Source of the DNA: Columba livia
Taxonomy: Eukaryota
Direction of reading: 5' to 3'
Length of the DNA stretch: 64,000 nt
Assembly: GCF_036013475.1 (NCBI RefSeq)
Contig: NC_088636.1
Location: 391,066-455,065 of the forward strand
The translations under genes were made by a program, and so were the position numbers. A model generated the notes under the pieces. The model was given only the letters and a program-made list of their open reading frames with translations, did no database searches and was not told the origin of the DNA. Positions 10,003 through 40,754 of this stretch are shown here, piece by piece (positions within the stretch are counted from its first letter, which is position 1; each line of letters begins with the position of its first letter).

Positions 10003-10009
10003 GTTGAGT

Positions 10010-11170: not shown

Positions 11171-11187
11171 CCCACAACCGCCCCCAG

Positions 11188-11258: not shown

Positions 11259-11269
11259 GTAACTGAGAC

Positions 11270-12475: not shown

Positions 12476-12493
12476 GTGGGTCTGTGCCCACAG

Positions 12494-12596: not shown

Positions 12597-12599
12597 GTG

Positions 12600-15500: not shown

Positions 15501-15900
15501 TGAAAATGGGTGTCTTTGGGGTTTTTTAGGCTCAGAAATGGGGTTTTGGGGGTGGGCTTGGGCCCCATAAGTGTGGGGCGGGACCCATAGATGTGGGGCA
15601 GGGGGTGTCAGGCCCCATAGGTGTGGGGCAGGACCCATAGATGTGGGGCTGGGGGAGGGTTTGGGGCCCAGAAATGGATTGCGGGGACATTGGGACCCAT
15701 AGATGTGGGGCAGGGGGTGTCTGGCCCCATAAGTGTGGGGCTGACCCATAAGTGTGGGGCAGGACCCATAAGTGTGGGGCAGGGGGTGTTGGGCCTCATA
15801 ATTGTTGGGGAAGGACTTGGGCCCCAGGAATGGGGGGTTGGGGACACTGGGACCCACAGATGTGGGGCAGGGGTTGTCCGGCCCCATAAGTGTGGGGCGG
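12600..15900. repeat. Composite satellite: a 20-bp unit (GGGACCCACAAGTGTGGGGC) with interspersed units of about 75 and about 80 bp, forming an irregular higher-order structure
   Basis: The marker blocks GTTGAAAATGGGGGTCTT...GGCTCAGAAATGGGG and GATGCTGGGAATGGGAGTTATTGGGTTGGATTTGGGCTCAG recur 14 and 7 times. Confidence 0.85.
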
Positions 15901-15947
15901 AGGGTCCGTCCGGCCCCACATCCATGGGGCAGGGCCGCTCTCCTCAG

Positions 15948-15993
15948 CTGGCCATGGAGCGCTGCCTGGGCTCGGCCGCCGACCTGCTGGAGG
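15948..15993 (+). CDS. TAOK2: TAOK2 coding exon 4
   Basis: The acceptor is ctctcctcag and the donor is GTGAGT. The translation is LAMERCLGSAADLLE, compared with LVMEYCLGSASDLLE. Confidence 0.85.
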
Positions 15994-16068
15994 GTGAGTG
16001 CTGTGGGGCGGCGCTATGGGGCAGCCCCATAGATCCCGGGGCTCACCCCCCAACCTCTGCCCCACAAG

Positions 16069-16166
16069 TGCACAAGAAGCCGCTGCGGGAGGCGGAGATC
16101 GCGGCCATCAGCCAGGGGGGCGCTGCGCGGGCTGGCCTACCTGCACCGCCTGGGGGTCATCCACAG
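16069..16166 (+). CDS. TAOK2: TAOK2 coding exon 5 (contains an apparent +1 G frameshift in the run at 16115-16120)
   Basis: The translation is VHKKPLREAEIAAISQG, then after a 1-nt shift ALRGLAYLHRLGVIHR, compared with [33 protein letters not shown]. The donor is GTCAGA at 16167. With one G removed, the phases fit exons 4 and 6 exactly. Confidence 0.8.
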
Positions 16167-16169
16167 GTC

Positions 16170-17980
16170 AGACCCATAGATTGACCCATAGATTGACCCA
16201 TAGATTGACCCATAGATTGACCCATAGGTCCTGACCCATAGCGCGACCATCGGCTTGCGTTGTGTTGGGCTTTCTGGTTCTTTTCTTGCTTGTGTTTGTG
16301 CTGCCCACAGATCCTGCCCCACAGATCCTGCCCCACAGATCCTGCCCCACAGATCCTGCCCCACAGATCCTGCCCCATAGATTTTGCCCCATAGATCTCC
16401 GCCATAGATCTGCCCTATAGATTGTGACCCATAGCGAGACCCATAGCAGGACCCACAGCCCCTGTTGTGGTGGTTTTTCTAGGTGTCCTCTTGCTTTTGT
16501 CCTGCCCCATAGATCCTGCCCCATAGATCCTGCCCTATAGATGTCCTGCCCCATAGATCCTGCCCCATAGATCCTGCCCTATAGATCCTGCCCCATAGTG
16601 AGACCCATAGATCCTGCTCTATAGATCCTGCCCCATAGCAGGACCCACAGCCCGTGTTGTGTTGGTTTCTCTGGGTCTTTTCTTGCTTGTGTTTATTGTT
16701 CCCGCCCCATAGATCCCGCCCCATAGATCCTGCCCCATAGCGGGACCCACAGATCCTGCCCCATAGATCCTGCCCCATATATCCTGGCCCTTAACCTGCC
16801 CTATAGATCCTGCCCCACAGATCCTGCCCATAGCAGGACCCACAGCCCCCGTTGTGGTGGTTTTTCTAGGTGTCCTCTTGCTTTTGTCCTGCCCCATAGA
16901 TCCTGCCCCATAGATCCTGCCCCATAGATCCTGACCCATAGATCCTGACCCATAGATCCTGACCCATAGCAGGACCCACAGCCCCCGTTGTGGTTGTTTC
17001 TCTGGGTCTTTTCTTGCTTGTGTTTATTGTTCCCACCCCATAGATCCTGCTCCATAGATCCTGCCCCATAGATCCTGCCCCATATATCCTGGCCCTTAAC
17101 CTGCCCTATAGATCCTGCCCCACAGATCCTGCCCCATAGCAGGACCCACAGCCCCCGTTGTGGTGGTTTTTCTAGGTGTCCTCTTGCTTTTGTCCTGCCC
17201 CATAGATCCTGCCCCATAGATCCTGCCCCATAGCGAGACCCGTAGATCCTGCCCCATAGATCCTGCCTCATAGCGAGACCCATAGATCATGCCCCATAGA
17301 TCCTGCCCCATAGCAGGACACACAGCCCCTGTTGTGTTGGTTTCTCTGGGTCTTTTCTTGCTTGTGTTTGTTGTTCCTGCCCCACAGATCCTGCCCCATA
17401 ACCTGCCCCATAGATCCTGCCCCATAGCGGGACCCATAGATGCTGCCCTATAGATGCTGCCGTATAGGTGCTGCCCCATAGCGGGACCCATAGATCCTGC
17501 CCCATAGATCCTGCCCCATAGATCCTGCCCCGTAGCAGGAGCCATAGATCCTGCCCCATAGATTCTGACCCATAGATCCTGCCCCATAGCAGGACCCACA
17601 GCCCATGTTGTGGCGGTTTTTCTGGGTCTTTTCTTGCTTGTGTTTGTTGTTCCTGCCCCACAGATCCTGCCCCATAACCTGCCCCATAGATCCTGCCCCA
17701 TAACCTGCCCCGTAGATCCTGCCCCATAGATTCCGCCCCATAGATCCTGCCCCATAGCGGGACCCACAGATCCTGCCCCACAGATCCTGCCCCATAGATC
17801 CTGTGCCATAGCGGGACCCATAGATCCTGCCCCACAGATCCTGACCCATAGATCCTGCCCCATAGCGGGACACACAGATCCTGCCCCATAGATCCTGCCC
17901 CACAGATCCTGAGCCATAGATCCTGCCCCATAGCAGGACCCATAGATCCTGCCCCACAGATCCTGACCCATAGATCCTGC
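16170..17980. repeat. Tandem satellite, about 15-bp unit (CATAGATCCTGCCCC) with a roughly 300-bp higher-order unit
   Basis: The block GCAGGACCCACAGCCCCCGTTGTGGTGGTTTTTCTAGGTGTCCTCTTGCTTTTGTCCTGCC recurs about every 300 bp. Confidence 0.85.
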
Positions 17981-18650
17981 CCTACGGCTCCAGCCCCACA
18001 GCTCCAGCCCCACTGATTCCGCCCCACTGATTCCGCCCCACTGATCCTGTCCCACTGCTCCCGCCCCACTGATCCCGCCCACTGATCCTGTCCCACTGAT
18101 CCGACCCCACTGCTCCCGCCCCACAGCTCCCGCCCCACTGATCCAGCCCCACTGATCCGGCCCCACTGCTCCCGCCCCACAGCTCCCGCCCCACTGATCC
18201 AGCCCCACAGCTCCCGCCCCACAGCTCCCGCCCCACAGCTCCCGCCCCACTGATCCAGCCCCACTGATCCGGCCCACTGATCCCGCCCCACTGATCCGAC
18301 CCCACTGCTCCCGCCCCACTGATCCGGCCCCACTGATCCGGCCCCACTGATCCTGCCCCACTGATCCGGCCCCACTGATCCAGCCCCACTGATCCGGCCC
18401 CACTGCTCCCGCCCCACTGATCCCGCCCCACTGATCCCGCCCCACTGACCCGGCCCCACTGATCCCGCCCCACGGCTCCTGCCCCACTGATCCAGCCCCA
18501 CTGACCCGGCCCCACTGATCCCGCCCCACTGATCCTGCCCCACTGACCCTGCCCCACTGACCCTGCCCCACTGACCCTGCCCCACTGACCCTGCCCCACT
18601 GATCCGGCCCCACTGATCCCGCCCCACTGACCCGGCCCCACGGCTCCCGC
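17980..18650. repeat. Tandem satellite, 15-bp unit (CACTGATCCGGCCCC/CACTGCTCCCGCCCC)
   Basis: Regular copies ending at the TAOK2 exon 6 acceptor. Confidence 0.9.
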
Positions 18651-18656
18651 CCGCAG

Positions 18657-18770
18657 GGACGTGAAGGCCGGGAACATCCTGCTGAGCGCCGTGGGGCAGG
18701 TCAAGTTGGGCGACTTCGGCTCCGCCGCCACGGCCGCCCCCAGCGGAGCCTTCGTGGGGACGCCCTACTG
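18657..18770 (+). CDS. TAOK2: TAOK2 coding exon 6 (catalytic loop and DFG)
   Basis: The acceptor is cccgcag and the donor is GTGAGC. The translation is (R)[38 protein letters not shown], compared with [39 protein letters not shown]. Confidence 0.9.
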
Positions 18771-18774
18771 GTGA

Positions 18775-19835
18775 GCGCCCCCCACGTGTGGGGCGGGACC
18801 CCCGGGTGTGGGGCTGGGACCCCCATGTGTGGGGCGGGACCCCCGAGTGTGGGGCTGGGACCCCCATGTGTGGGGCTGGGATTGGTGGTTGTGACCCCCG
18901 AGTGTGGGGCTGGACCCCCAAGTGTGGGGCTGGGATTGGTGGTTGTGACCCCCGAGTGTGGGGCTGGGACCCCCAAGTGTGGGGCTGGGACCCCCAAGTG
19001 TGGGGCTGGGATTGGTGGTTGTGACCCCCAAGTGTGGGGCTGGGACCCCCAAGTGTGGGGCTGGGACCCCCAAGTGTGGGGCTGGGATTGGTGGTTGTGA
19101 CCCCCAAGTGTGGGGCTGGGACCCCCACGTGTGGGGCAGGACCCCCAAGTGTGGGGCTGGGATTGGTGGTTGTGACCCCCAAGTGTGGGGCTGGGACCCC
19201 CACGTGTGGGGCAGGACCCCCAAGTGTGGGGCTGGGATTGGTGGTTGTGACCCCCAAGTGTGGGTCTGGGACCCCCAAGTGTGGGGCTGGGATTGGTGGC
19301 TGTGACCCCCAAGTGTGGGTCTGGGACCCCCAAGTGTGGGGCTGGGACCCATAGCGGGGCTGGGATTGGTGGTTGTGACCCCCAAGTGTGGGTCTGGGAC
19401 CCCCAAGTGTGGGGCTGGGATTGGTGGCTGTGACCCCCAAGTGTGGGTCTGGGACCCCCAAGTGTGGGGCTGGGACCCCCGAGTGTGGGGCTGGGATTGG
19501 TGGCTGTGACCCCCAAGTGTGGGGTGGGACCCCCGAGTGTGGGGCTGGACCCCCAAGTGTGGGGCTGGGACCCACAGCGGGGCTGGGATTGGTGGCTGGG
19601 ACCCCCAAGTGTGGGGCTGGGATTGGTGGTTGTGATCCCCGAGTGTGGGTCTGGGACCCCCAAGTGTGGGTCTGGGACCCCCAAGTGTGGGGCTGGGATT
19701 GGTGGTTGTGATCCCCGAGTGTGGGTCTGGGACCCCCAAGTGTGGGGCTGGGATTGGTGGTTGTGACCCCCAAGTGTGGGGCTGGACCCCCAAGTGTGGG
19801 GCTGGGATTGGTGGCTGTGACCCCCAAGTGTGGGC
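18775..19835. repeat. Tandem satellite, about 21-bp (GGGACCCCCAAGTGTGGGGCT) and about 33-bp (GGGATTGGTGGTTGTGACCCCCAAGTGTGGGGCT) units
   Basis: Alternating sub-units related to the 12600-15900 family. Confidence 0.85.
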
Positions 19836-19859
19836 TGAGTTCAGAGAGGGGGGACCCGG

Positions 19860-22650
19860 GAGTTTGGTCCTAATGCTCCCGCCCCACACATCCCGCCCCA
19901 CACATCCCGCCCCACACATCCTGCCCCACATCTGCCCCACACCCCCGCCCCATGTCTGCCCCACACACTGCCCCTCACCCGCCCCACACCCCCCCACACA
20001 TCCTGCCCCACACCTGTGCTGCACACCCTGCCCCACATCTGCCCCACATCTGCCCCACATCTGCCCCACATCCGCCCCACTCCTGACCTCCACCTCTTGC
20101 CCCACCCCACATCCCACCCCACACATCCGCGCCCCACACATCCGCGCCCCACACGTCTGTGCCCCACACATCCCACCGCACACATCTGTGCCCCACACAT
20201 CGCGCCCCACACATCCCACCCCACACCTCCTGCCCCACACATCCCTCCCCACCTCTGCCCCTCATCCACCCCACACCCCCCCACACCTCTGCCCCCCACA
20301 TCCTGCCCCACATCCTGCCCCACACCCCCGCCCCACACGCTGCCCCCCACATCCTGCCCCCCACATCCTGCCCCCCACATCCTGCCCCCCACCTCCCGCC
20401 CCCCACCTCCCGCCCCACACCTCCCGCCCCACACCTCCCGCCCCACACCTCCCGCCCCACACCTCCTGCCCCACACCTCCCGCCCCACACCTCCCGCCCC
20501 ACACATCCCGCCCCACACCTCCCGCCCCACACATCCCGCCCCACACCCGCCCCACACCCGCCCCACATGTGCCCCCAGGATGGCCCCCGAGGTGATCGTG
20601 GCCGTGGACGAGGGGCCGTACGACGGCCGAGCCGACGTCTGGTCCTTGGGCATCACCTGCATCGAGCTGGGTGAGCGCGGGGGCTGCCCCACATCGCCCC
20701 ACATCACCCCACATCTGCCCCATATCTGCCCCACATCTGCCCCACATCTGCCCCACATCTGCCCACATCCCCGCCCCACATCTGCCCCACATCTGCCCCA
20801 CATCTGCCCACATCCCGCCCCACATCCCGCCCCACATCCTGCCCCACATCCCGCCCCACATCTGCCCCACATCTGCCCCACATCCCGCCCCAAATCCCGC
20901 CCCACATCCCGCCCCACATCCCGCCCCACATCCGCCCCACATCCGCCCCACATCCCGCCCCACATCCCGCCCCACATCCCGCCCACATCCTGATCCACAT
21001 CCTGCCCCACATCCCGCCCCACATCTGCCCCACATCCTGCCCCACATCCTGCCCCACATCTGCCCCACGTCCTGCCCCACGTCCTGCCCCACATCCCGCC
21101 CCACATCCCGCCCCATATCTGACCCACATCCCGCCCCACATCCTGCCCCACATCCTGCCCCACATCCTGCCCCACATCTGCCCCACATCCTGCCCCACAT
21201 CTGCCCCACGTCCTGCCCCACATCCTGCCCCACATCTGCCCCACATCCCGCCCCACATCCCGCCCCACGTCCCGCCCACGTCCCGCCCCACGTCCTGCCC
21301 CACATCTGCCCCACATCTGCCCCACATCTGCCCCACATCCCGCCCCATATCTGCCCCACATTGCCCCACATCCCGCCCCACATCCCGCCCCACATCCCGC
21401 CTCACATCCCGCCCCACGTCTGCCCCACATCGCCCCACATCCCGCCCCATATCTGCCCCACATCCCGCCCCACATCCCGCCCCACATCTGCCCCACATCT
21501 GCCCCACATCGCCCCACATCCCGCCCCATATCTGCCCCACATCTCCCCACATCTGCCCCACATCCCGCCCCACATCCCGCCCCACATCCCGCCCCACATC
21601 CCGCCCCACATCCCGCCCCACATCTGCCCCCACATCTGCCCCCACATCCCGCCCCACATCCCGCCCCACATCCCGCCCCACATCCCGCCCCACATCCCGC
21701 CCCACATCCTGCCCCACATCTGCCCCACATCCCGCCCCACATCCCGCCCCACATCTGCCCCACATCCTGCCCCACATCCTGCCCCACATCTGCCCCACGT
21801 CCTGCCCCACGTCCTGCCCACGTCCTGCCCCACGTCCTGCCCCACATCCTGCCCCACATCCCTGCCCCACATCCCTGCCCCACATCCCGCCCCACATCCC
21901 CCCCACGTCCCGCCCCACGTCCCGCCCCACGTCCCGCCCCACGTCCTGCCCCACATCTGCCCCACATCTGCCCCACATCTGCCCCACATCCCGCCCCATA
22001 TCTGCCCCACATTGCCCCACATCTGCCCCATGTCCTGCCCCACGTCCTGCCCCACATCCTGCCCCACATCTGCCCCACATCTGCCCCACATCCCGCCCCA
22101 TATCTGCCCCACATTGCCCCACATTGCCCCACATCTGCCCCACATCCTGCCCCACATCTGCCCCACATCTGCCCCACATCTGCCCCACATCCCGCCCCAT
22201 ATCTGCCCCACATTGCCCCACATCCTGCCCCACATCCTGCCCCACATCCTGCCCCACATCTGCCCCACATCCCGCCCCACATCGCCCCACATCCCGCCCC
22301 ACATCCCGCCCCACATCCCGCCCCACATCCCGCCCCACGTCTGCCCCACATCGCCCCACATCCCGCCCCACATCTGCCCCACATCTGCCCCACATCGCCC
22401 CACATCCCGCCCCATATCTGCCCCACATCTCCCCACATCTGCCCCACATCCTGCCCCACATCCTGCCCCACATCCCGCCCCACATCCCGCCCCACATCTG
22501 CCCCACATCTGCCCCCACATCCCGCCCCACATCCCGCCCCACATCCTGCCCCACATCCCGCCCCACGTCTGCCCCACATCGCCCCACATCTGCCCCACAT
22601 CTCCCCACATCCTGCCCCACATCCCCTCATCTCTGCCCCCCATCTCCCCC
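19860..22650. repeat. C-rich tandem satellite, about 13-14-bp unit (CCCCACATCCCGCC/CCCCACATCTGCC), interrupted only by TAOK2 exon 7 (20579-20670)
   Basis: The same unit is present on both sides of exon 7, with no stop codons in several frames. The ORFs of 300-740 aa are artefacts. Confidence 0.9.
20579..20670 (+). CDS. TAOK2: TAOK2 coding exon 7 (APE motif)
   Basis: The acceptor is gcccccag and the donor is GTGAGC. The translation is (W)[30 protein letters not shown], compared with [30 protein letters not shown]. The exon sits as an island inside a continuous (CCCCACATCCCG)n array. Confidence 0.9.
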
Positions 22651-22679
22651 CATCTCCCCCCATGTCCCCGTGTCCCCAG

Positions 22680-22773
22680 CGGAGCGGAAGCCGCCGCTGT
22701 TCCACCTGAACGCCATGAGCGCGCTGTTCCACATCGCCCAGAGCGACCCCCCCCGCCTGCCCCCCGCCCCGTG
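22680..22773 (+). CDS. TAOK2: TAOK2 coding exon 8
   Basis: The acceptor is tgtccccag and the donor is GTGAGC. The translation is [31 protein letters not shown](W), compared with [32 protein letters not shown]. Confidence 0.9.
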
Positions 22774-22789
22774 GTGAGCCGCACGCCTG

Positions 22790-23285
22790 GGTCCCCCCCG
22801 GACGCCTGGGTCCCTCAGAACACCTGGGTCCCCTCCCGAACTCCTGGGTCCCTCCTGCACTCCTGGGTCCCCCCGAACGCCTGGGTCCCTCCCTGAACAC
22901 CTGGGTCCCTGGGGCACTCCTGGGTCTCCCCCCGGACGCCTGGGTCCCCCAAAACGCCTGGGTCCCCTCCCGGACGCCTGGGTCCCTCCCCAACCTCCTG
23001 GGTCCTCTCCCTAAACTCCTGGGTCCCTCAGAACTCCTGGGTCCCTCTCTGACCTCCTGGGTCCCCCCCGGACGCCTGGGTCCCCCTTCCGAACTCCTGG
23101 GTCCCCCCCCCCCGGACGCCTGGGTCCCTCCCCGGACGCCTGGGTCCCTCAGAACTCCTGGGTCCCTCCCCCCCGAACGCCTGGGTCCCTCCCCCCCAAA
23201 CGCCTGGGTCCCTCCCCGGACGCCTGGGTCCCTCAGAACTCCTGGGTCCCCCCCGGACGCCTGGGTCCCCCGGACGCCGGGGTCC
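22790..23285. repeat. Tandem satellite, about 20-bp unit (GACGCCTGGGTCCCTCCCCG), the reverse orientation of the GGGACCCAGG family
   Basis: It starts directly after the exon 8 donor and ends at the exon 9 acceptor. Confidence 0.9.
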
Positions 23286-23299
23286 CTGTCGGGTCGCAG

Positions 23300-23381
23300 G
23301 TCGCCGTGTTTCCGGGGGTTCGTGGGTTCGTGTCTCCAGAAGCAGCCGCAGGATCGACCCACGGCCGACGAGCTGCTGCAG
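23300..23381 (+). CDS. TAOK2: TAOK2 coding exon 9
   Basis: The acceptor is gggtcgcag and the donor is GTTAAT. The translation is (W)SPCFRGFVGSCLQKQPQDRPTADELLQ, compared with [27 protein letters not shown]. Confidence 0.85.
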
Positions 23382-23394
23382 GTTAATTACCGCT

Positions 23395-24200
23395 CATTAC
23401 CGCTAATTACCCCCTAATTACCCCTTAGTTACCCCCCATGACCTCAATGACCCCTCAATGACCCCTTAATGACCCCTAATGACCCCTTAATTACCCCCAT
23501 GACCCCTTAATGACCCCTTAATGACCCCCCATGACCCCTCGATACCTCTCATTACCTCTCATTACCCCTTAATTACCCCCTAATTACCCCCCATGACCCC
23601 TCATTACCCCTAATTACTCCTTAATTACCCCTTAATTATGCTTTAATTACCCGGTCGTTACCCCTTAATCACCCCCATTGCCTCCTTAATGACCCCATTG
23701 ACCCCTTACCCCATTAATTACCCCCTTACCCCATTAATTATCCCTTTACCCCATTAATTATCCCTTTACCCCATTAATTACCCCCTTATCCCATTAATTA
23801 CCCCATTATCCCATTAATTACCCCCTTACCCCATTAATTACCCCCTTACCCCATTAATTATCCCTTTACCCCATTAATTACCCCCTTATCCCATTAATTA
23901 CTCCCTTACCCCATTAATTATCTCCTTATCCCATTAATTACCCCCTTATCCCATTGTCCCATTAATGATCTCATTATCCTATTAATTATCCCATTGCTCT
24001 ATTATCCTTATTATCCCATTAACTATCCCATTAATTACCCCCGTTGATCCCATTATCTCCTTAATTACTCCCATTAATTATCCCCATTATCCCATTAATT
24101 ATCTCTGTTATCGCATTAATTATCCCACTCATTACCCAATTACCTCATTGATCCCATTATCCATTAATTACCCCCATTATCCATTAATTACCCCCGTTAT
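23395..24200. repeat. Tandem satellite, about 25-bp unit (CCATTAATTACCCCCTTACC and variants)
   Basis: Degenerate head-to-tail copies. Confidence 0.8.
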
Positions 24201-24335
24201 CCATTGATTCCCCCATTGATCCCATTCATTCATTCATTCATTCATTCATTCATTCATCCATGTGTCCCCCATTCATCCCCTCGTCCCCTCACCCCATTGG
24301 CTCATTCTCCCCTTTGGCCCCGCCCCTTTCTCCAG

Positions 24336-24497
24336 CACCACTTCCTGCAGAGGCCCCGCCCCCCGCGCGTGCTCCTCGCTCTGATTGGCCGAGCCCAGGC
24401 GGCCGCCCGGGCCCTGGACCAGCTGCACCTGCGGCCAATCAGGAAGCTGCTGCTCCCGGATGGCCCCGCCCCCGGCCCCGCCCACCGGGACCCCCAG
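24336..24497 (+). CDS. TAOK2: TAOK2 coding exon 10 (end of kinase domain)
   Basis: The acceptor is cctttctccag and the donor is GTTTGG. The translation is HHFLQRPRPPRVLLALIGRAQAAARALDQLHLRPIRKLLLPDGPAPGPAHRDPQ, compared with [51 protein letters not shown]. Confidence 0.85.
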
Positions 24498-24539: not shown

Positions 24540-25865
24540 TTTTTCGGACCCATTGTCCCCCATTGTCCCCCCATTGTCCCCCATTGACCCCCATTGACCC
24601 CCATTGTCCCCCATTGACCCCCATTGACCCCCATTGTCCCCCATTGTCCCCCATTGACCCCCCATGGTCCCCATTGACCTCAAGGTCCCATTGGGGTCCC
24701 CATTGTCCCCTTGGTCCCCATTGACCCCCCAGGTGTCCCCATTGTCCCCACAAGGTCCCATTGACCCCCACGTCCCCATTGTCACCTCCTGAGCTCCCAT
24801 TGGCCCCATGGGACATCACCATTGACCCCCATGTCCCCATTGACCCCACTGGGGTCCCCATTGTCCCCTTGGGCTCCATTGACCCCATGGGACGTCCCAT
24901 TGTCCCCCATTGTCCCCCATTGTCCCCCATGTCCCCATTGACCCCATTGGGGTCCCCATTGACCCCCATGTCCCCCATTGTCCCCATTGACCCCATTGGG
25001 GTTCCCATTGTCCCCTTGGGCTCCATTGACTCCATGGGACGTCCCATTGTCCCCCATTGTCCCCCATTGTCCCCCATTGTCCCCCATTGTCCCCATTGTC
25101 CCCATTGTCCCCATTGACCCCCATATGTCTCCGTGGTCCCAATGGGGTCCCCATTGTCCCCTTGGGCTCCATTGACCCCATGGAATGTCCCCAAGATCCC
25201 ATTGTCCCCATTGACCCCATTGGGGTCCCCATTGTCTCCTTGGGCTCCATTGACCCCATGGGACATCCCATTGTCCCCCATTGTCCCCATTGACCCCATT
25301 GACCCCATTGGGGTCCCCATTGTCCCCCATTGACCCCATTGTCCCCCTTGTCCCCCATTGTCCCCATTGTCCCCATTGACCCCATTGGGGTCCCCATTGT
25401 CCCCCATTGTCCCCCATTGACCCCTTTGGGGTCCCCATTGACCCCATGGGACATCCCATTGTCCCCCATTGACCCCATTGTCGCCATTGTCCCCATTGAC
25501 CCCCATTGTCCCCATTGACCCCCATGTCCCCATTGTCCCCATTGTCCCATTGTCCCCATTGTCCCATTGTCCCCCATTGTCCCCATTGACCCCCATTGTC
25601 CCCATTGACCCCCATGTCCCCATTGACCCCCATGTCCCCATTGTCCCCATTGTCCCATTGATCCCCATTGTCCCCATTGACCCCCATTGACCCCCATTGT
25701 CCCCATTGACCCCCATGTCCCCATTGACCCCCATTGTCCCCATTGTCCCCATTGACCCCCATGTCCCCATTGACCCCCATTGTCCCCATTGTCCCCATTG
25801 TCCCCATTGTCCCCATTGACCCCCATTGACCCCCATTGTCCCCATTGTCCCCAATGTCCCCATTG
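24540..25865. repeat. Tandem satellite, 9-10-bp unit (CCCCATTGTC/CCCCATTGAC) with GGGGTCCCCATTGTCCCCTTGGGCTCCATTGAC higher-order markers
   Basis: Part of the CCCATTGNCC family. Confidence 0.9.
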
Positions 25866-25881
25866 TCCCCATCACCCCCAG

Positions 25882-26097
25882 GGGGCGGAGCCCGCCTGCA
25901 GCCCCGAGCGCAGCCATTGGCCGCCCAGCGCGTCCGTCAGCGAATCCAGCGGCAGCAGCGGCGCCAGCGCGGCCAATGACGACGACGATGACGACGGTGA
26001 CGGTGACGACGGTGACGACGGTGACGGTGACGACGGTGACGGTGACGACGAGGACGAGGACGAGGAAGGTCCCCCATTGGCCGCCCAACACCCGCCC
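25882..26097 (+). CDS. TAOK2: TAOK2 coding exon 11 (Ser-rich and acidic linker)
   Basis: The acceptor is atcacccccag and the donor is GTGAGT. The translation is GAEPACSPERSHWPPSASVSESSGSSGASAANDDDDDDGDGDDGDDGDGDDGDGDDEDEDEEGPPLAAQHPP, compared with GAEAPEEE...[30 protein letters not shown]...EGPE. Confidence 0.8.
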
Positions 26098-26199
26098 GTG
26101 AGTCCGCGAGGGTCCCGAACCCCCAAAAACGCCCTAAAATGGGTTAAACGCCCCAAAATGCGGTTGAGACCCCAAAGAACCGTCAGGGCGACGATTAAA

Positions 26200-26790
26200 G
26201 GGTCAGGGGCTCTTTAAGAAACAAGTGGGCGGGGCTTGGGGGGGTGGAGTTCGGGCTTGCAGCCAATCAGCTGCTGAGGAGGCCTTGGGGGCTCTTTAAG
26301 AAACAGGTGGGCGGGGCTTAGGGAGTGGAGTTTTGCTTGCGGCCAATCAGCTGCTGAGGAGGCCTTGGGGGCTCTTTTAGGACAAGGGGGCGGGGCTGAG
26401 GGGGGTGGAGTTCGGGCTTGCGGCCAATCAGCTGCTGAGAAGGCCTTGGGGGCTCTTTAAGTAACAGGTGGGCGGGGCTTAGGGGGTGGAGTTTGGGCTT
26501 GCGGCCAATCAGCCGCTGAGGAGGCCTTGGGGGCTCTTTAAGGAGAAGGGGGCGGGGCTTAGGGGGTGGAGTTTGGGCATGTGGCCAATCAGATGCTTAG
26601 GAGGCCCTGGGGGGCTCTTTAAGGACAAGTGGGTGGGGCTTGAGGGATGGGTTGGGCCTTAGGGGGCGGAGTTTGGGCTTGTGGCCAATCAGCTGCTGAG
26701 GAGGCCCTGGGGGCTCATTAAGGACAAGGGGGTGGGGATTGAGGTGGTGGGCGGGGCCTGAGGGGGCGGAGTTTGGGGGCTCGGGGTGTC
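26200..26790. repeat. Tandem satellite, about 87-bp unit (GGGCTCTTTAAGAAACAAGTGGGCGGGGCTT...GCCAATCAGCTGCTGAGGAGGCCTTGG)
   Basis: About 7 copies, each with a CCAAT-containing GCCAATCAG motif. Confidence 0.85.
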
Positions 26791-27499
26791 TCATTGGTTG
26801 GGAGGGTTTGGGGAAGCTGATGGGGGGGGGGGTCTGGGCATCTCATTGGTCAGGAGGCCCCGTGGGCTCCTTATAAGGGGGTGGGCGGGGCCTGGGAGGG
26901 GATTGGACGAGACAAACGGGGCGGAGTTTAAAGGGGGCGGAGCTAAAGAGGTTGTAGTGTTACCCTATGGGGGGGGGGGGGGGAGCATTTGGCGCCCCCA
27001 AATACCCCCCAAATGACCCCAAATTTGACCCCAAAACCCACGGGGGGGGTTGGAAACAGCCCAAAATACCCAAAAAGCGCTAAAAACGTGTCGTTATTTG
27101 TGCATTTTGGGGTGTCGGAGCCCCAAAACCGTGCGGTTTGACCCCGATTTCAGGCTGAGGATGAGGACGAGGTTCCTGGCGGCGCTAACGAGGCGGCGCA
27201 GCAATTAGAGACTGGGTTAACGAACCAGCGCCGCCAGTTCGGCCCCGGAGGTGACGCGGGGACACGGGGACCCCGAGACCCAAATTCCCGCCGGTTGGCC
27301 CCAAATTCCCCCCTTTCCCGCCCCAATTCCCTCGGGTTTCACCCCAATTTCTGCCCCACTTCCCCCCCCATTGATCGCCCCATTGATCCCCCCAGTTCCC
27401 CCATGAACCCCCCCAGTTTGACCCCCAGTTTCCCCCCCAATTCCCCCATTAATCCCCCCCATTTGACCCCCAGTTCCCCCATTGATCCCCCCAATTGCA

Positions 27500-27930
27500 C
27501 CCCCACTTTCTCCCCTATTGATCCCATTGGTCCCATTGGCCCCATTGACCCCATTCATCCCATTGGCTCCATTGATGCCATTGACCCCATTGATCCCATT
27601 GGCCCCATTGATCCCATTCATCCCATTGGCCCCATTGATCCCATTCATCCCATTGGCTCCATTCATCCTGTTGACCCCATTGATCCCATTGGCCCCATTG
27701 ACCCCATTCATCCCATTGGCTCCATTCATCACACTGATCCCATTGATCACATTGGCCCCATTGACCCCATTGATCCCATTGGTTCCATTCATCCCATTGA
27801 TCCCATTGGCTCCATTGACCCCATTCACCCCATTGATCCCATTGGCCCCACAGACCCCATTCACCCCACTGACCCCGTTCACCCCATTGACCCCATTGGC
27901 CCCATTGACCCCATTGCCCCCATTGCCCCC
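27500..27930. repeat. 9-bp tandem repeat (CCCATTGAT/CCCATTGGC), frame-preserving and possibly partly coding within the TAOK2 terminal exon
   Basis: The strict 9/18-bp period is open in all three plus frames. Frame 2 gives ([11 protein letters not shown])n, continuous with the TAOK2 TM-tail ORF. Confidence 0.85.
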
Positions 27931-28738
27931 ATCCACCCCCCCCCTTTCCCCCCCCTCCCCCCCTCCCCGCCCCGCCTCCCTCCCCCCCGCCCTCCCATTG
28001 GCCGCCGCCCTCCTGGCCGCCCTTTACCTCCGCCCCTCCCTCCCCCTCCTCCTCCTCCTCCTCCTCCTCTGGCTCCTCCCCCGCGCAGGGCGTGGCCACG
28101 CAGGGGGCGGGGCCGTGGGCGTGGCTTTAGCCCTGACCCTCCCAGACCCCTATTGGCGCTTTGGCCTCTTGACCTTGACCCTGACGGCGGGAATTTGGCC
28201 GTTTTTGGGTTTTTCCCCCAAAAACTACCGGGCGTACGCCCCCGTTTGCCTCCTGGCCGCCCAGTTCCTGCTGTTCCCGTGGCTCTTCCTGGCCTGTTAC
28301 CTGCTGGGCGTGGGGGGGCGGGGCTTCCTGGGGGGGCGGGGCTTTGGGGGGGTGCAGCGCTGGCTGTTCCGGGGGGTGCTGCGCTTGCCCCCCCCCGTTT
28401 TCCGCCTCCTTTCCCGTTTGGGTTTCGTATCCGAGCGCCGACTTTACCAATTTTACCCCAAAACGAGACCCGCCTGGCACTTCCGCTCCCGCCTGCCCAT
28501 CCCCCGGCGCGGCCCCGCCCCGCCCCCCCCGCCCCTCCCCCAGCGCCTCTGGCTCCGCCTCCGCCGCGCCTGCCGCAACGGGTGGGGGAGGGGGAGGGGG
28601 GCGGAGCCTCCGAGCCGCATCCCCCGCCCCTCCCCCCGCCCGCCCAAAGCGCCCCAAGGGCACGGGGGAGGGGCTAAAGCGGCGGGGGGGGCGGGGCGGG
28701 GAGCGGTGGCCCCGCCCCCGAGGAGACCGTGGAGGTGA
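27854..28738 (+). CDS. TAOK2: TAOK2 long-isoform terminal exon: Pro-rich and poly-Leu transmembrane tail (5' boundary tentative; stop at 28736-28738)
   Basis: In frame 2 the translation reads ...[13 protein letters not shown]...[20 protein letters not shown]...[19 protein letters not shown]...[27 protein letters not shown]...APPPRRPWR*. This matches the TM tail specific to human TAOK2 isoform 1: ...[13 protein letters not shown]...LWLRVLLRLSPMAF...LYPKTNKDGFRSRLPVPGPRRRNP...ALPPWR*. A candidate acceptor ccccacag at 27852-27853 lies in frame 2. Confidence 0.75.
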
Positions 28739-28829: not shown

Positions 28830-29900
28830 GGGAAATTTGGACATTTTCAAAGTTTCGAACGTTTGAAAGTCGAAATTTTTCAAATTCTCCAACTTTTCGA
28901 AATTTTCAAATCCCAATTTTCAAATTTCCAAAGTTTCCAACATTTTAAAATTCTGATTTTTCAGGTTTGAAAATTAAAAAATGGGGATTTAAAACTTGAA
29001 AAGTTTGAAAATTTAAGAATTGGGATTGGAAAATTTTGAAAAGTTTGGAAATTTGAAAATTGGAATTTAAAAATTTTGAAAATTTTTTAGAGTTTGAAAA
29101 TTGAAAAATTGGGATTTGGAAATTTTGAGACGTTTGAAAATTTAAAAATTGGGATTTAAAAATCTTGAAAGTTTAAAAATTTATAGCTTAGAATTTTAAA
29201 AAGTTTGGAATTTTAAGAATTAGGATTTGAAAATTTGGAAAAGTTTGAAAATTTAAAAGTTGGGGTTTAATAATTTTGAAAAGTTTGGAAATTTGAAAAT
29301 TACAATTTTAAAATTTTGAAAAGTTTGAAAATTTAGAAGTTGGGATTTAAAAATTTTGAAAAGTCGGAATTTAAAAAATGAAAAGTTTGGAAATTTAAGA
29401 AGGAATTTTAAATTTTTGAGAAGTTTGGGAATTTGAGAATTGGAATTTAAAATTTTGGAAAAGTTTGAACATTTCAAAATTGGGATTTGAAAATTTAGTA
29501 AATTTGGAAAGTTTGGAAATTTGGAAATTTAAAAATTTTGGAAAGTTTGGGAATTTGAAAATTGGAATTTTGAAAAAATAAGAAGTTTGGAAAGTTTGAC
29601 AATTGAAAAGTTTAGAAATTTAAAAATAGGGATTTAAAAATTTGGAAAAGTTGGAGAATTTTAAAATTGGGATTTTAGGATTTTGAGAAGTTTGAAAATT
29701 TCAAGTTTGGGCTTGAAAAATTTGGAAAAGTTTGAAAACTGGAAATTTAAAAATGAAAAAGACAATTTGGTGGTTTTAAAACTTAAAAAATGTGGAAAAT
29801 TAAGAATTTCAGTGAAAATTTGAAACGTTTTGGAAATTTGGAAAATGCCCAAATTTAAATGTGAAAATTTTCAAAGTTTTGAAAACGTTGGGAGTTTGAA
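28830..29900. repeat. AT-rich tandem satellite, about 30-40-bp unit (TTGAAAATTTAAAAATTGGGATTTGAAAATTT)
   Basis: An abrupt drop in GC content directly 3' of TAOK2. Confidence 0.85.
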
Positions 29901-35387: not shown

Positions 35388-35522
35388 GCTACGCCCGCCT
35401 GGCGCTGGCGGCCGCCGCCGTCTGGCTGATGCCCACGCGCCCGGCTCCCGCGGCCGCGCTCTACGGGGCCAGCGCCGCCCTGGACGCCCTGGACGGCGCC
35501 GTGGCCCGCAGGCTCAACCAGG
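35388..35522 (+). CDS. CDIPT: CDIPT exon 2
   Basis: The acceptor is ccccccccag. The translation is (G)YARLALAAAAVWLMPTRPAPAAALYGASAALDALDGAVARRLNQ, compared with YARIVFAIISFYFMPCCPLTASSFYLLSGLLDAFDGHAARALNQ. The donor is GTGGGC. Confidence 0.9.
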
Positions 35523-36790
35523 GTGGGCGGGGCTAAGGGGGGCGGGGCTGAGGGGGGCGGGGCTGAGGGGGGCGGGGCTGAGGGGGGCGGGGCCTCGGGG
35601 GGCGGGGCTGAGGGGGTGGGGGAGTGGTAGCTGCGATGTATGGGGCGGGAAGGGGCCGTAGGGAGGTGGGAGGGGGGCGTGGTTTGGGGGAGGGGTGTGG
35701 TTTGGGGTGGGCCGTGGTTTGGGGGAGGGGCCGTGGTTTGGGGGAGGGGCCGTGGTTTTGGGGGGCATGGTTTGGGGATGGGGCGTGGTTTGGGGGAGGG
35801 GGTGTGGTTTGGGGTGGGGTGTGGTTTGGGGAGGGGCCTGGTTGGGGTGGGGCGTGGTTTTGGGGAGGGGCGTGGTTTGGGGAGGGGGCGTGTTTTGGGG
35901 GAGGGGGCGTGGCTTGGGGAGGGGGCGTGGTTTGGGGAGGGGGCGTGGTTTGGGGAGGGGGCGTGGTTTGGGGAGGGGGTGTGGTTTGGGGAGGGGTCGT
36001 GGTTTGGGGAGGGGCCTGGTTGGGGTGGGGCGTGGTTTTGGGGAGGGGCGTGTTTTGGGGGAGGGGGCGTGTTTTGGGGGAGGGGGCGTGGCTTGGGGAG
36101 GGGGGCGTGGTTTGGGGAGGGGGCGTGTTTTGGGGAGGGTGCATGGTTTAGGGCAGGGGGCGTGGTTTGTGGGAGGTGGGTGTATAGGTGGGTGTATAGG
36201 GATGAGAATGGCCATAGGGAGGTGGGAGGGGGCGTGGTTTAGGTGGGAAGAGGCGTGGCTTGGAGTGGGAGTGGCCTGAGGGGGGCGTGGCCCTGAGGGG
36301 GTGGAGCATGGAGGGGTAACTGAGACATATAGGGGTGGGAATGGGCCATAGGGAGGTGGGAGGGGGCGTGGTTTAGGTGGGAGGAGGCGTGGTTTAGGTG
36401 GGAGGGGTGTGGTCTGAGTGGGTGGGGCCTCGAGGGGGCGGAGCTTAGGGGTGTGGGAGGGGGAAGTTGGGTGTATAGGGGTGGGAATGGGCCGTAGGGA
36501 GGTGGATAGGGGGGCGTGGTTAAGGTGGGAGGAGGCGTGGCTTATATGGGGCGTGGCTTGGAGTGGGAGTGGCCTTAGGGGGCGTGTCCCAGAGGGGGTG
36601 GAGCTTGGAGGGGTAACTGAGATGTATAGGGGTGGGAAGGGATGTAGGGAGGTGGGTGGGGGCGTGGTTTAGGTGGAGGAGGTGTGGCTTATATGGGGGC
36701 GTGGCTTGGAGTGGGCGTGGCCTGAGGGGGCGGGGACTCATGGGGGCGGAGCCTGGAGGGGTAACTGGGGTGAATGGGGTGGGAAACAAT
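35520..36790. repeat. Tandem satellite, about 18-bp unit (GGGCGTGGTTTGGGGAGG) with longer composite units
   Basis: It fills CDIPT intron 2. Confidence 0.85.
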
Positions 36791-37058
36791 CCCTATGGGT
36801 CCATACTGGTTTGTACTGGTTTATACTGGAAAAGGCATTATGGGGGTTATTTTGGGCAGGGGGGGTCAGGGGGTCCCCCAGGACCCTTGGGGAGGTGAGA
36901 TGACCCATACTGGTCTGTACTGGTCTGTACTGGTCTGTACTGGTCTATACTGGTCTGTACTGGTTTATACCGGTTTAAAGGCCCTTAGGGGGTGTATCTC
37001 GGGGGGGCGGTTCCGGGGGTCACCCGGGGGTCCCCCCGCTGTCCCCCCCCCCCCCCAG

Positions 37059-37212
37059 GGACCCGTTTTGGCGCCATGTTGGACATGCTGACGGACCGGC
37101 TCAGCTCCATGTGCCTATTGGTCAACCTGGCGCTGCTCTACCCGGCAACCGCCGCCCTGTTCCAGCTCAGCATGGCGCTGGACGTGGCCAGCCATTGGCT
37201 GCACATGCACTG
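37059..37212 (+). CDS. CDIPT: CDIPT exon 3 (CDP-alcohol phosphotransferase motif)
   Basis: The acceptor is ccccccag. The translation is GTRFGAMLDMLTDRLSSMCLLVNLALLYPATAALFQLSMALDVASHWLHMH, compared with GTRFGAMLDMLTDRCSTMCLLVNLALLYPGATLFFQISMSLDVASHWLHLH. The donor is GT at 37213. Confidence 0.9.
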
Positions 37213-37219
37213 GTGGGCG

Positions 37220-37860
37220 GGGCTAAGGGGGGCGGGGCCTGCGAGAGGGGTGGGGCTAGAGGGGGTGGGAATAAAGGGGGTGGGAATAAAGGGGGTGGAG
37301 CTAAAGAGGTGGGAATAATAGAGGGTGGAGTGAAAAGGGGGCGGACTGAAAAGGGGGCGGAGCTAAAGGGGGTGGGGGTAAAGGGGGAGGAGCTAAAGGG
37401 GGCAGGGATTGAAGTGGTGGGGTTAAAGGGGGCGGGGCTAAAGAAGTGGGGATAAGCGGAGCTAAAGGGGGTGGGGAGAAAGGAGGCGGAGCTAAAGGGG
37501 GTGAGGAGAGAGGGGTGGAGCTAAAGGGGTGGGAATAAAAGGGGTGGAGCTAAAGGGGTGGGGATTAGAGGGGCGGAGCTAAAGGGGGTGAGGAGAGAGG
37601 GGGCGGAGCTTCAGGGGTGGAGAGAGGGGGCGGAGCTAAAGGGGTGGGAATAAAAGGCGTGGAGGTAAAGGGGGTGGGGATGAAGGGGATGGAGCTAGGG
37701 GTAAAGGGGGCGGGGCTAAAGGGGCAGTGCTAAAGAGGGTGGGGATAAAGGGGTGGAGCTAAAGGGGATGGGTTAAAGGGGGTGGAGCTAAAGGGGGTGG
37801 GGATGAAGGGAATGGGGATAAATGGGGCGGAGCTAAGGGGGCGGGAAAAAGGGGGTGTGG
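37220..37860. repeat. Tandem satellite, about 22-bp unit (AAAGGGGGTGGAGCTAAAGGGG)
   Basis: It fills CDIPT intron 3. Confidence 0.85.
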
Positions 37861-37929
37861 TTGGGTTGGGTGAAGAGGTGTGGCTGGTGGGCGTGTCCCC
37901 CCGACCCTGCCCCCTTTCCCCTCCCCCAG

Positions 37930-38011
37930 CACCACCCTGGAGGGCGGAGCCTCCCACAAGGACGTGGGGGGGGAGGGGCACCCGCTGCTGCGCCTCTACT
38001 ACACAAACAAG
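37930..38011 (+). CDS. CDIPT: CDIPT exon 4
   Basis: The acceptor is ctcccccag. The translation is (C)TTLEGGASHKDVGGEGHPLLRLYYTNK, compared with SSVVRGSESHKMIDLSGNPVLRIYYTSR. The donor is GTAAGG. Confidence 0.85.
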
Positions 38012-38019
38012 GTAAGGGG

Positions 38020-38700
38020 GCGGGGCCAAGGGGGAGGGGCCAATGGGGCTGGAGGAGGGACCAGGAGTGGGGGAGGGGTGAGAGGGAGGGGGAGGGGTCA
38101 TGGGGCTGGAGAGGGGGAGGGGCCTTAGGGTGGGGGAGGGAGTCAGAGGGGGAGGGGCCAGGGGTTGGGGGGTGTGGTCAGTGGGGTGGGGGAGGGACAA
38201 AGGGGGGGATCAGGGAGTGGGGGAGGAGCTGGGGGGATGTGCTCTGGGGGTTGGGGTGGGGTAAGAGGGCGGGGCTATGGGGTTGGGGGTGGGGCCATGG
38301 GGTTGGGGGCAGGGTCAGTGATTTGGGGGTGGGGTCAGTGATTTGGGGGTGGGGTCAGTGATTTGGGGGCGGGGTCAGGGCGTTGGGGTGGGTTGGGGGT
38401 GTGGCCATGGGGTTGGGGGTGTGGCCATGGGGTTGGGGGTGTGGCCATGGGGTTGGGGGTGTGGCCATGGGGTTGGGGGCGGGGTCATGGTTTTGGGGGC
38501 GGGGTCATGGTGTTGGGGTGGGTTGGGGGCCGGGCCATGGGGTTGGGGGCGGAGTCGGTGGGCGTGGCCATGTGCTTGGGGGCGGCATCATGGGGTTGGG
38601 GTGAGGTCAGGGGCCGTGGTCACGAGTTGGGGGCGGGGTCTGCGGTTTGGGGGCGGGGTCAGGGCTGGCTGGGGGCGGGGTCGGCGGAGGGGGCGTGTCC
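38020..38700. repeat. Tandem satellite, about 20-bp unit (GGGTTGGGGGTGTGGCCATGG)
   Basis: It fills CDIPT intron 4. Confidence 0.85.
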
Positions 38701-38719
38701 ATGTTGGCCCCGCCCCCAG

Positions 38720-38801
38720 CCGCTGCTGTTCGCGCTTTGCGCCGGGAACGAAGCGTTTTACTGCGGCCTCTACCTGGTGAAGTTCAGCGACGGGCCCCGC
38801 G
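38720..38801 (+). CDS. CDIPT: CDIPT exon 5
   Basis: The acceptor is cgcccccag. The translation is PLLFALCAGNEAFYCGLYLVKFSDGPR, compared with PALFTLCAGNELFYCLLYLFHFSEGPL. The donor is GTCAGT. Confidence 0.85.
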
Positions 38802-38809
38802 GTCAGTGG

Positions 38810-40570
38810 GACGCGCTGGGTGAACTGGGCAGACTGGGCAGACTGGGGGGAGACTGGGGAGAGACTGGTCAGACTGGTTATACTGGTCACAGACTGGGGA
38901 GAGGCTGGTTATACTGGTTATACTGGGGGGAGACTGGGGAGAGACTGGTTATACTGGTTATACTGGGGGGAGACTGGTTATACTGGTCAGACTGGTCACA
39001 CTGGGGAGAGACTGGTTAGACTGGTTAGACTGGTCACAGACTGGGGAGAGACTGGTTATACTGGTCACACTGGTCAGACTGGGGGGAGACTGGGGAGAGG
39101 CTGGTTAGACTGGTCACAGACTGGTTATACTGGGGAGAGACTGGTTATACTGGTCAGACTGGTCAGACTGGGGAGAGGCTGGTTAGACTGGTTAGACTGG
39201 TCAGACTGGTCAGACTGGGGAGAGACTGGTCAGACTGGTCAGACTGGTCAGACTGGTCACAGACTGGTTATACTGGTCAGACTGGTCACACTGGGGGGAG
39301 ACTGGGGAGAGACTGGTTATACTGGTCAGACTGGGGGGAGACTGGTTAGACTGGTCAGACTGGTCACAGACTGGTTATACTGGGGAGAGACTGGTCAGAC
39401 TGGTTATACTGGGGGGAGACTAGGGAGAGGCTGGTCAGACTGGTTATACTGGTCACAGACTGGTTATACTGGGGAGAGACTGGTTATACTGGTCAGACTG
39501 GTCAGACTGAGGGGAGACTGGGGAGAGGCTGGTTAGACTGGTTATACTGGTCACAGACTGGGGAGAGGCTGGTTATACTGGTTATACTGGTCACAGACTG
39601 GTTATACTGGTCAGACTGGTCAGACTGGGGAGAGACTGGTCAGACTGGTCAGACTGGGGGGAGACTGGGGAGAGGCTGGTTATACTGGTCAGGCTGGGGA
39701 CAGACTGGGGGGAGACTGGTTATACTGGTTATACTGGTCAGAGACTGGTTATACTGGGGGGAGACTGGTTATACTGGTTATACTGGTCACAGACTGGGGA
39801 GAGGCTGGTTAGACTGGTTAGACTGGGGGGAGATTGGTTATACCGGTTATACTGGTCACAGACTGGGGAGAGACTGGTTAGACTGGTCAGACTGGGGAGA
39901 GACTGGTTATACTGGTTATACTGGTTATGAGACTGGGGAGAAACTGGTTAGAGAGACTAGGGAGACTGGTTATACTGGTTGACTGGGGGGAACTGGTTTA
40001 TACTGGAGGGACTGGGAGGGAACTGGGATGGACTGGTTTGGACTGGGATGAACTGGGATGCACTGGAATGAACTGGGAGGGACTGGGAGGGACTGGGAGG
40101 GACTGGGATGGGACTGGGAGGGACTGGGATGGACTGGGATGAACTGGGATGAACTGGGATGGACTGGGGGTTCACTGGGATGGACTGGTCCATACTGGTC
40201 CATACTGGTCTGAACTGGGATGGACTGGGGAGGTCACTGGGATGGACTGGGATGGACTGGGGGGTTCACTGGGATGAACTGGGGGTTTCACTGGTCCGTA
40301 CTGGTCCGTACTGGTCCATACTGGTCTGAACCGGTCTGTACTGGTCTGAACCAGTCCATACTGGTCCATACTGGTCTGAACTGGTCCATACTGGTCCATA
40401 CTGGTCCATACTGGTCCGTACTGGTCTGAACTGGTCCGTACTGGTCCATACTGGTCTGAACTGGTCCGTACTGGTCTGAACTGGTCCGTACTGGTCCGTA
40501 CTGGTCCATACTGGTCTGAACTGGTCCGTACTGGTCCGTACTGGTCCGTACTGGTCTGAACTGGTCCGTA
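38810..40570. repeat. Tandem satellite, 9-10-bp unit (CTGGTCAGA/CTGGTTATA, then CTGGTCCGTA/CTGGTCTGAA)
   Basis: It fills CDIPT intron 5. The same ACTGGT family occurs at 33400-34500 and 51990-52320. Confidence 0.9.
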
Positions 40571-40581
40571 CTGGTGCCCAG

Positions 40582-40754
40582 TGCTCCCGGGGGCCCCCGG
40601 GCTGTTCCGGCTCCTCCTCTGGGTCGCGACCCCCATGGCCGCCCTCAAGTTCCTGCTGAACCTGCTGCAGCTGGGCGGAGCCGCCGCGCGATTGGCCGCC
40701 CTGGACGCCGCCGCCAGGCGATTGGACGAGGCGCCCAGACCCAAAACCCAGTGA
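40582..40754 (+). CDS. CDIPT: CDIPT terminal exon (stop at 40752-40754)
   Basis: The acceptor is ctggtgcccag. The translation is (V)LPGAPGLFRLLLWVATPMAALKFLLNLLQLGGAAARLAALDAAARRLDEAPRPKTQ*, compared with VGSVGLFRMGLWVTAPIALLKSLISVIHLITAARNMAALDAADRAKKK*. Confidence 0.85.

Follow-up and report, generated by a model that had tools for sequence, protein, structure and literature searches.

A pigeon TAOK2 gene that keeps its kinase and membrane tail and has very probably lost its coiled-coil exons

Introduction

TAOK2 is a gene of the autism region at 16p11.2, and the relation between its coiled coil and the tail that tethers the endoplasmic reticulum (ER) to microtubules is still being worked out. 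A stretch of 64,000 nucleotides from Columba livia (NC_088636.1, positions 391,066 to 455,065 of the forward strand; hereafter the window, with all positions counted from its first letter) carries a TAOK2 gene that raises the question of what has become of this coiled coil. A preliminary description, made from the sequence alone, had reported no coiled-coil exons between the exon for the acidic linker and the exon for the transmembrane tail. It had proposed that the two are spliced together directly, and had named collapse of the assembly and exons too diverged to recognize as alternatives.

Our analysis indicates that the window TAOK2 is very probably without the ~320-residue coiled coil, and that the four exons encoding it, together with the exons of the beta isoform, are probably gone from the genome, through what looks like a natural deletion and not an assembly error. 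A full-text search for literature on bird TAOK2 gave no relevant paper. The architecture without a coiled coil has previously appeared only in automatic NCBI models, which disagree with one another.

Results

Coiled-coil and beta exons are not detected in the window

The searches used a hidden Markov model (HMM) built from 23 vertebrate TAOK2 proteins over all sequence after the acidic region; the --max option was set, with an expectation (E) value of 10 or less, and the targets were all six-frame open reading frames (ORFs) of at least 12 residues. In the 64-kb window no match to the coiled coil was obtained at this threshold on either strand, the sole match being to the part of the profile that represents the alpha tail, and tblastn with the human, kiwi or ostrich proteins likewise gave no coiled-coil match in the 64 kb. 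As positive controls, the kiwi, ostrich and emu loci yielded all four coiled-coil exons with the same HMM, at E values from 1e-21 to 1e-83. The C-terminal exons of the beta isoform, which the HMM detects in ostrich and emu (E 1e-5 to 1e-13), have no match in the window by tblastn or HMM, and none lies between the TAOK2 stop at 28738 and CDIPT. The absence noted in the preliminary description is therefore confirmed, and the suggestion that the exons are present and merely too diverged to recognize is rejected, since the profile search is empty even at E<=10.

The absence extends to other birds. In the gap-free loci of Caloenas nicobarica (Nicobar pigeon; L001), Cinclus cinclus (dipper; L007) and Ammospiza caudacuta (saltmarsh sparrow; L008), the HMM finds the tail only and no coiled-coil or beta exons. 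These three assemblies share the structure seen in the window, and a spliced songbird transcript, described below, also has no coiled coil; collapse of a single assembly is thereby ruled out, and we rejected it as the explanation for this interval. Among 17 retrieved proteins with the FRSRLP tail motif, coiled-coil motifs are carried by all 11 that are not neoavian (amphibian, turtle, marsupial, bat and kiwi) and are missing only from six neoavian short forms.

The alpha-type tail is retained

The tail of the window gene matches human residues 909-1235 (E 5.5e-22 by tblastn) and is also homologous to the kiwi and turtle tails. Its 420-codon frame is unbroken. A Kyte-Doolittle scan shows four hydrophobicity peaks above 1.4, two of them overlapping, and the SxIP motif is present in the form SRIP, followed by a Pro/Arg-rich stretch that ends in PWR. 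Of the 17 tail-bearing proteins retrieved, 15 have PSRIP; the remaining two show only '..IPRL' in the C-terminal segment that was printed.

Human TAOK2-alpha has six transmembrane helices (residues 941-1066) and an amphipathic helix that restricts the protein to ER subdomains. Its residues 1187-1235 bind microtubules, the SxIP motif there binds EB1, and tethering is negatively regulated by kinase activity (PMC8699727). By homology, the product of the window gene is most likely an ER-anchored kinase that would bind microtubules and EB1 through its tail, with neither a coiled-coil bundle nor a soluble beta form.

Short forms encoded by other birds

The closest available relative is the Nicobar pigeon, whose TAO2 protein (XP_065511397.1) shows 92% kinase-domain identity to the window. 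The best database matches to the draft window protein are all TAO2 or TAO2-like, with the Caloenas protein at the top (84% overall). The 789-residue 'TAO2-like' protein of Phalacrocorax carbo (great cormorant; XP_064331503.1) has exactly the architecture proposed in the preliminary description. A search with the C-terminal half of the protein retrieved three further short forms: 'TAO2-like' isoform X1 of the sparrow (XP_058679052.1, 893 residues), 'TAO2-like' of the dipper (XP_062370170.1, 699 residues) and the Logan contig SRR21676486_74279 (L006), which is 2,569 nt long with one ORF of 691 codons. In all three the order is kinase, acidic stretch, ~300 residues of Pro/Ser repeats, hydrophobic tail, PSRIP and PPPRRPWR, and no coiled-coil motifs were found in any of them. 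Against the Cinclus genome the Logan contig falls into eight aligned blocks and is therefore spliced; its acidic exon is joined directly to a single terminal exon of ~1.6 kb at ..CCGCAG/GACGAC.., read as ..EAPPQ/DD.. (a slash marks a splice junction throughout). The protein envisaged in the preliminary description, a kinase with acidic, Pro-rich and transmembrane-tail regions and no coiled coil, thus has counterparts in the sparrow, dipper and cormorant proteins and in the spliced contig, and this architecture is supported for the window, the songbirds and the Nicobar pigeon alike.

Some of these sequences have irregularities of their own. The Logan contig is missing 17 nt at ~420-445 that code for FVGTPY of the activation segment, which produces a frameshift, and Ammospiza isoform X3 (P0198) is without the entire exon for the catalytic loop and DFG motif; either may represent a kinase-dead isoform or an artefact of assembly. 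The Caloenas tail shifts frame near L001 22900 (CM069743.1), so that its conserved C-terminus falls in another frame, and the NCBI Caloenas model leaves out the tail and ends with a 17-codon exon (L001 25038-25088) that sits in a satellite. We treated that last exon, PDAEPRAMSQWGARNG, as unreliable; its match in the window is weak (E 0.065) and lies inside a GCCAATGGGGAGCAAG satellite at ~30.8 kb.

The gene has been under purifying selection

In comparison with the Nicobar pigeon, the ratio of nonsynonymous to synonymous substitution rates (dN/dS) is 0.30 in the kinase (synonymous rate dS 0.39, 290 codons) and 0.26 in the tail, the latter computed on the alignable core of 170 codons so as to be free of repeat mis-pairing. 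Out-of-frame controls on the same DNA as the tail core gave 0.83 and 2.0, and the segment that begins at 27154 gave 0.68 over 44 codons. The kinase and tail values indicate that the form without a coiled coil has been under purifying selection. Despite its dN/dS of 0.30, the kinase shows a strong acceleration of rate and is only ~70% identical to canonical TAOK2.

That divergence is one reason to consider whether the window copy is a recently decayed pseudogene, with loss of the coiled coil as part of the decay. The other is a set of four frame-disrupting differences from the intact ORF of the Nicobar pigeon. In exon 1 a net change of -1 (~9906-9909) separates the ATG from the Gly-rich loop; as assembled, the ATG (9893) belongs to frame 2 and the conserved part to frame 1, so that the two are out of frame. 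The GT of the exon-1 donor is destroyed by an extra T (10003-10005), the window reading G/TTGAGT where Caloenas reads G/GTGAGT, and exons 3 and 5 each have an extra G. We nevertheless consider a decayed pseudogene unlikely. The dN/dS values of 0.26-0.30 reflect frame-specific constraint, the catalytic motifs of the kinase are all intact, and no frame disruption occurs in exons 6-11 or in the tail. Loss of the coiled coil is common to species with intact models, such as Ammospiza X1, and so predates any decay. Moreover, three coding disruptions sit in short runs of C or G and the fourth is a duplicated T in the exon-1 donor; this placement, together with the frameshift in the tail of the Caloenas assembly itself, suggests sequence error, which is likelier than recent decay.

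Coding probably resumes at 27154

The acidic exon, exon 11, ends in phase 0 at 26097 as first reported, and a GTGAGT donor follows at 26098. The interval beyond it had been described as 1.75 kb with an 87-bp satellite, unique GC-rich sequence and a 9-bp repeat. It does lack any TAOK coiled coil, but its unique part includes an overlooked segment at 27154-27250 that is conserved and probably coding and that reduces the non-coding spacing to 1,056 bp, and the satellite has a period of 81 bp according to Tandem Repeats Finder (TRF; 5.4 copies at 26206-26646, with a 100-bp variant extending to 26777). The segment at 27154-27250 is in frame with exon 11 and ends in phase 1. It corresponds to the exon placed next after the acidic one in the models of Caloenas and the cormorant, and the Caloenas model shares its donor. 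Over the 69 bp ahead of its acceptor the identity to Caloenas is 82.6%, an uncommonly high value for such introns, and the unique sequence from ~27087 to 27250 is collinear with Caloenas.

Two routes lead from this segment to the tail. The acceptor AG at 27472-73 (ccccatttgacccccag/TT) suits phase 1, and frame 2 is then open to the stop. Alternatively the segment may be read through, as in Caloenas, where segment, repeats and tail form a single open frame (21060-23237); a single-base correction in the C runs at 27936-27990 would then give the window one terminal exon of ~527 codons, and those of songbirds have 541-547 codons. The 9-bp array lying on either route is real, as had been noted, but it is probably coding and not intronic, because it has 0% indels against 11% in the related intronic 9-bp array at 24549-25872. 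On these comparisons, coding probably resumes at the acceptor 27153/27154, takes in the 9-bp repeat and continues as the tail until the stop at 28736-28738.

Direct splicing of exon 11 to an acceptor at 27852-27853, with everything between as intron, is an improbable alternative. The AG in question (ccccacag) does open frame-2 codons, both sides of a 26097-27854 join are in phase 0, and the joined frame meets no stop ahead of the tail; the songbird acidic exon, moreover, splices straight to the exon that bears the tail. However, the AG is part of the 9-bp array and other species have no equivalent of it, whereas the acceptor and coding segment at 27154 are conserved and used by the Caloenas and cormorant models, and the phase 1 in which that segment ends does not fit 27854. 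The freedom of the array from indels is as expected of coding DNA, and the songbird terminal exon itself includes the ~300 Pro/Ser-repeat residues upstream of the tail. The 26097-27854 junction is therefore probably wrong, although it could be used in a minor isoform. Placing the acceptor at 27154 by homology means that exon 11 would join a different downstream exon from the one first proposed, which displaces that junction and leaves the absence of the coiled coil standing.

Orthology and taxonomic distribution

TAOK2 lies directly upstream of CDIPT, on the same strand, in the short genes of the window, Caloenas, the cormorant and Ammospiza and in the canonical genes of ostrich and emu. This shared place supports the short genes as positional orthologues of canonical TAOK2. 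The window gene has the TAO-type kinase domain, with TAO2 proteins as its best matches, and the conserved genomic position of a TAOK2 orthologue; what it lacks is the central coiled-coil region (~320 residues, four exons). Canonical TAOK2 kinases are 92-96% identical from fish to mammals, whereas the short-form kinases are ~70% identical to them and ~70-73% identical between bird orders. A neighbour-joining tree built on the kinase domain places the short forms in one long-branched clade (100% bootstrap), and the next branches are the cuckoo (100%), the gull (95%) and then the paleognaths.

The tree, in which the short forms cluster with the canonical cuckoo and gull outside, would be compatible with the short gene being a paralogue and the canonical coiled-coil TAOK2 residing elsewhere in the genome. 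The NCBI label 'TAO2-like' on several short forms and a taxonomic pattern that misfits one loss point in the same direction. Yet the short genes occupy the place of the canonical ostrich and emu gene, both forms occur together in no species among the retrieved matches, and the cuckoo groups with the short forms and not with the gull (100%), unlike what simple duplication predicts; the short-form clade could also be explained by long-branch attraction. We regard paralogy as a rather remote explanation. A query of the protein database with the Larus coiled coil returned unnamed fragments only.

An assembly artefact, in which real coiled-coil exons were lost by collapse or by a false join between similar satellites, is very improbable: related 9-bp satellites do occur at 24549-25872 and 27513-27939, the window has several single-base frame problems and the cormorant assembly is interrupted by a gap in the corresponding interval, but the independent gap-free assemblies and the spliced songbird transcript are likewise without these exons, and the unique sequence before and within the 27154 segment is collinear with Caloenas.

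Layout of the locus

The window is vertebrate DNA, rich in GC and laden with satellites, and contains no N. Ten TAOK2 exons of the kinase and post-kinase regions were located by tblastn with the human query on the + strand at 9893-24497, and the features of the locus are listed in Table 1. All internal splice sites of the gene are AG/GT, except for the exon-1 donor. The corrected model encodes 849 residues, on the assumption of the 223-bp intron and three single-base corrections upstream, and matches Pfam Pkinase with 201 bits over profile positions 4-263 of 263.

Table 1. Features of the TAOK2 locus and its neighbours in the window
Feature	Position	Strand	Remarks
PAGR1-like segment	1193-1414		upstream of TAOK2; 79% identical to Caloenas PAGR1 (PAXIP1_C) region
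TAOK2 coding exon 1	9893-10003	+	ATG; Gly-rich loop GHGSFGAVY
Kinase exon 2	11188-11258	+	VAIKKMSYGGK
Kinase exon 3	12494-12596	+	one extra G at ~12590 breaks ..HTAW/gtgagc
Kinase exon 4	15948-15993	+	LAMERCLGSAADLLE
Kinase exon 5	16069-16166	+	G run of six at ~16115 where the reading frame expects five; frameshift
Kinase exon 6	18657-18770	+	
Kinase exon 7	20579-20670	+	
Kinase exon 8	22680-22773	+	
Kinase exon 9	23300-23381	+	
Exon 10, post-kinase helix	24336-24497	+	phase 0 at its end
Exon 11, acidic/Ser-rich linker	25882-26097	+	phase 0 in and out; donor GTGAGT at 26098
Intron after acidic exon	26098-27153	+	1,056 bp; 81-bp satellite at 26206-26777; last 69 bp conserved with Caloenas
Probable start of terminal coding block	27154-27250	+	frame 1; acceptor tttcag/GCT, donor GGAG/gtgacg
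Putative 223-bp intron or read-through coding	27251-27473	+	gtgacg...cccccag; frame 1 to frame 2
9-bp repeat array	27513-27939	+	~47 copies (TRF); Pro-rich linker if coding
C-run tract	27936-27990	+	C9, C8, C7, C7; net +1 shift relative to the continuous Caloenas frame
Alpha-type tail	27959-28738	+	frame 2; hydrophobic segments; SRIP 28613-28624; C-terminal ..PPPRRPWR; stop 28736-28738
CDIPT exons	35423-40640	+	downstream of TAOK2

The TAOK2 introns of the window consist almost wholly of tandem satellites, and related families recur in the Caloenas introns. Intron 10, for example, holds the 9-bp CCCATTGTC array (~137 copies at 24549-25872). An AT-rich satellite with a period of ~40 bp (GTTTGAAAATTTAAAAATTGGGATTT...) lies at 28965-29738, ~230 bp past the TAOK2 stop, with a GC content of 0.43 compared with 55-70% in the rest of the window. 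Both strands of a ~5-kb block at 53193-58350 have ORFs of >1,500 codons, a sign of a long tandem array; the block is ~75% identical to a satellite in a Caloenas TAOK2 intron (L001 16103-17549). The upstream neighbour of TAOK2 varies by species, being TMEM219 in emu and ARMC5 in the sparrow.

Discussion

How might a TAOK2 gene of this shape have arisen? We suggest an in-frame genomic deletion with one breakpoint within the first coiled-coil exon and the other within the alpha read-through extension of the last such exon, which would have fused the two ends into a single large terminal exon. After exon 11, the resulting gene would have a satellite-filled intron of 1,056 bp, coding sequence again from 27154, a Pro-rich linker and the alpha-type tail. 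Its product would be an obligate membrane-anchored kinase, with no soluble beta isoform. The segment at 27154-27250 is probably a remnant of the first coiled-coil exon, from its 5' end: the post-acidic exon of the cormorant starts with PPDGLGAPP..PPPP, which resembles the canonical PPDGLYAPP.. of Larus and Cuculus (shuffle p<0.01), and further along has LEEGLRAELA against the canonical LENRLRAELA. The idea that this small exon stems from the last coiled-coil exon, at its 3' end (TELGNQ..), was unsupported and was dropped. Tentatively, and with slightly less than even confidence, we extend the scenario to several neoavian orders: one in-frame deletion would have remodelled TAOK2, the kinase would then have diverged by ~30% under purifying selection, and the patchy distribution would be due to repeated loss, lineage sorting or paralogy.

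Several observations weigh against the reading of the window gene as a functional deletion product. In Smith-Waterman comparisons against shuffled sequences, the small exon of the window (QLETGLTNQ) does not match canonical coiled-coil exons significantly (p 0.05-0.36), nor does that of Caloenas (p 0.4-0.9). Exon use between 27154 and 27960 is predicted, the transcript evidence coming from a songbird. As assembled, the small exon is in frame 1 and the tail in frame 2, so that either the 223-bp intron or a correction of one nucleotide is needed, and the Caloenas Gnomon model, from the same donor, splices past the tail to its 17-codon satellite exon. The single-base disruptions in exons 1, 3 and 5 and the damaged exon-1 donor mean that the window copy may be non-functional, or the sequence error-prone. 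At the cormorant locus, an assembly gap of 200 N (L002 19721-19920, OY997631.1) falls precisely in the interval that separates post-acidic exon and tail; the 'intron' of the NCBI model bridges it although the sequence there is unknown, and the cormorant is for this reason weak evidence. Finally, songbirds, pigeons and the cormorant have short forms and cuckoo and gull canonical ones, a pattern that one loss does not explain on published neoavian trees; repeated loss, incomplete lineage sorting of ancient date or a hidden paralogue may lie behind it.

Among the closest known systems is human and other tetrapod TAOK2-alpha (PSK1-alpha), the ER-microtubule tethering kinase (Nourbakhsh et al. 2021, PMC8699727). 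The window gene resembles it in the N-terminal STE20/TAO kinase domain, the acidic/Ser-rich linker, the C-terminal hydrophobic region, putatively multi-pass, with the FYPKT..FRSRLP motif and the ..PWR C-terminus, the location of the tail in the terminal exon, and the SxIP motif, which is SRIP in the window and TRIP in the human sequence. It differs in having no ~320-residue coiled coil between linker and tail, in a lineage-specific tandem-repeat tract as the linker ahead of the membrane region, and in its ~70% identical kinase, where other vertebrate TAOK2 kinases share 92-96%. The soluble TAOK2 beta, TAOK1 and TAOK3 belong to the same kinase domain family and present the reverse arrangement, with long coiled coils and no membrane tail, whereas the window gene has the tail and no coiled coil. 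The Gnomon models of Ammospiza, Cinclus, Phalacrocorax and Caloenas share with the window the loss of the coiled coil and the conserved tail; they are unpublished automatic predictions, and their repeat linkers differ completely between orders.

The locus is an example of fast evolution in a GC-rich, satellite-laden gene of a bird microchromosome, combining domain loss with strong rate acceleration. It also carries a practical warning that gene models are inconsistent in such regions, as in Caloenas, where the model omits the tail, and in the cormorant, where it bridges a gap. The short TAOK2 is in effect a natural domain-deletion construct, in which a bird lineage keeps the kinase and the membrane tail under selection with the coiled coil and the beta isoform deleted. 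This suggests that the alpha-type membrane function can stand alone, and the short proteins of birds offer a way to ask what the coiled coil contributes to autoinhibition, dimerisation and membrane binding.

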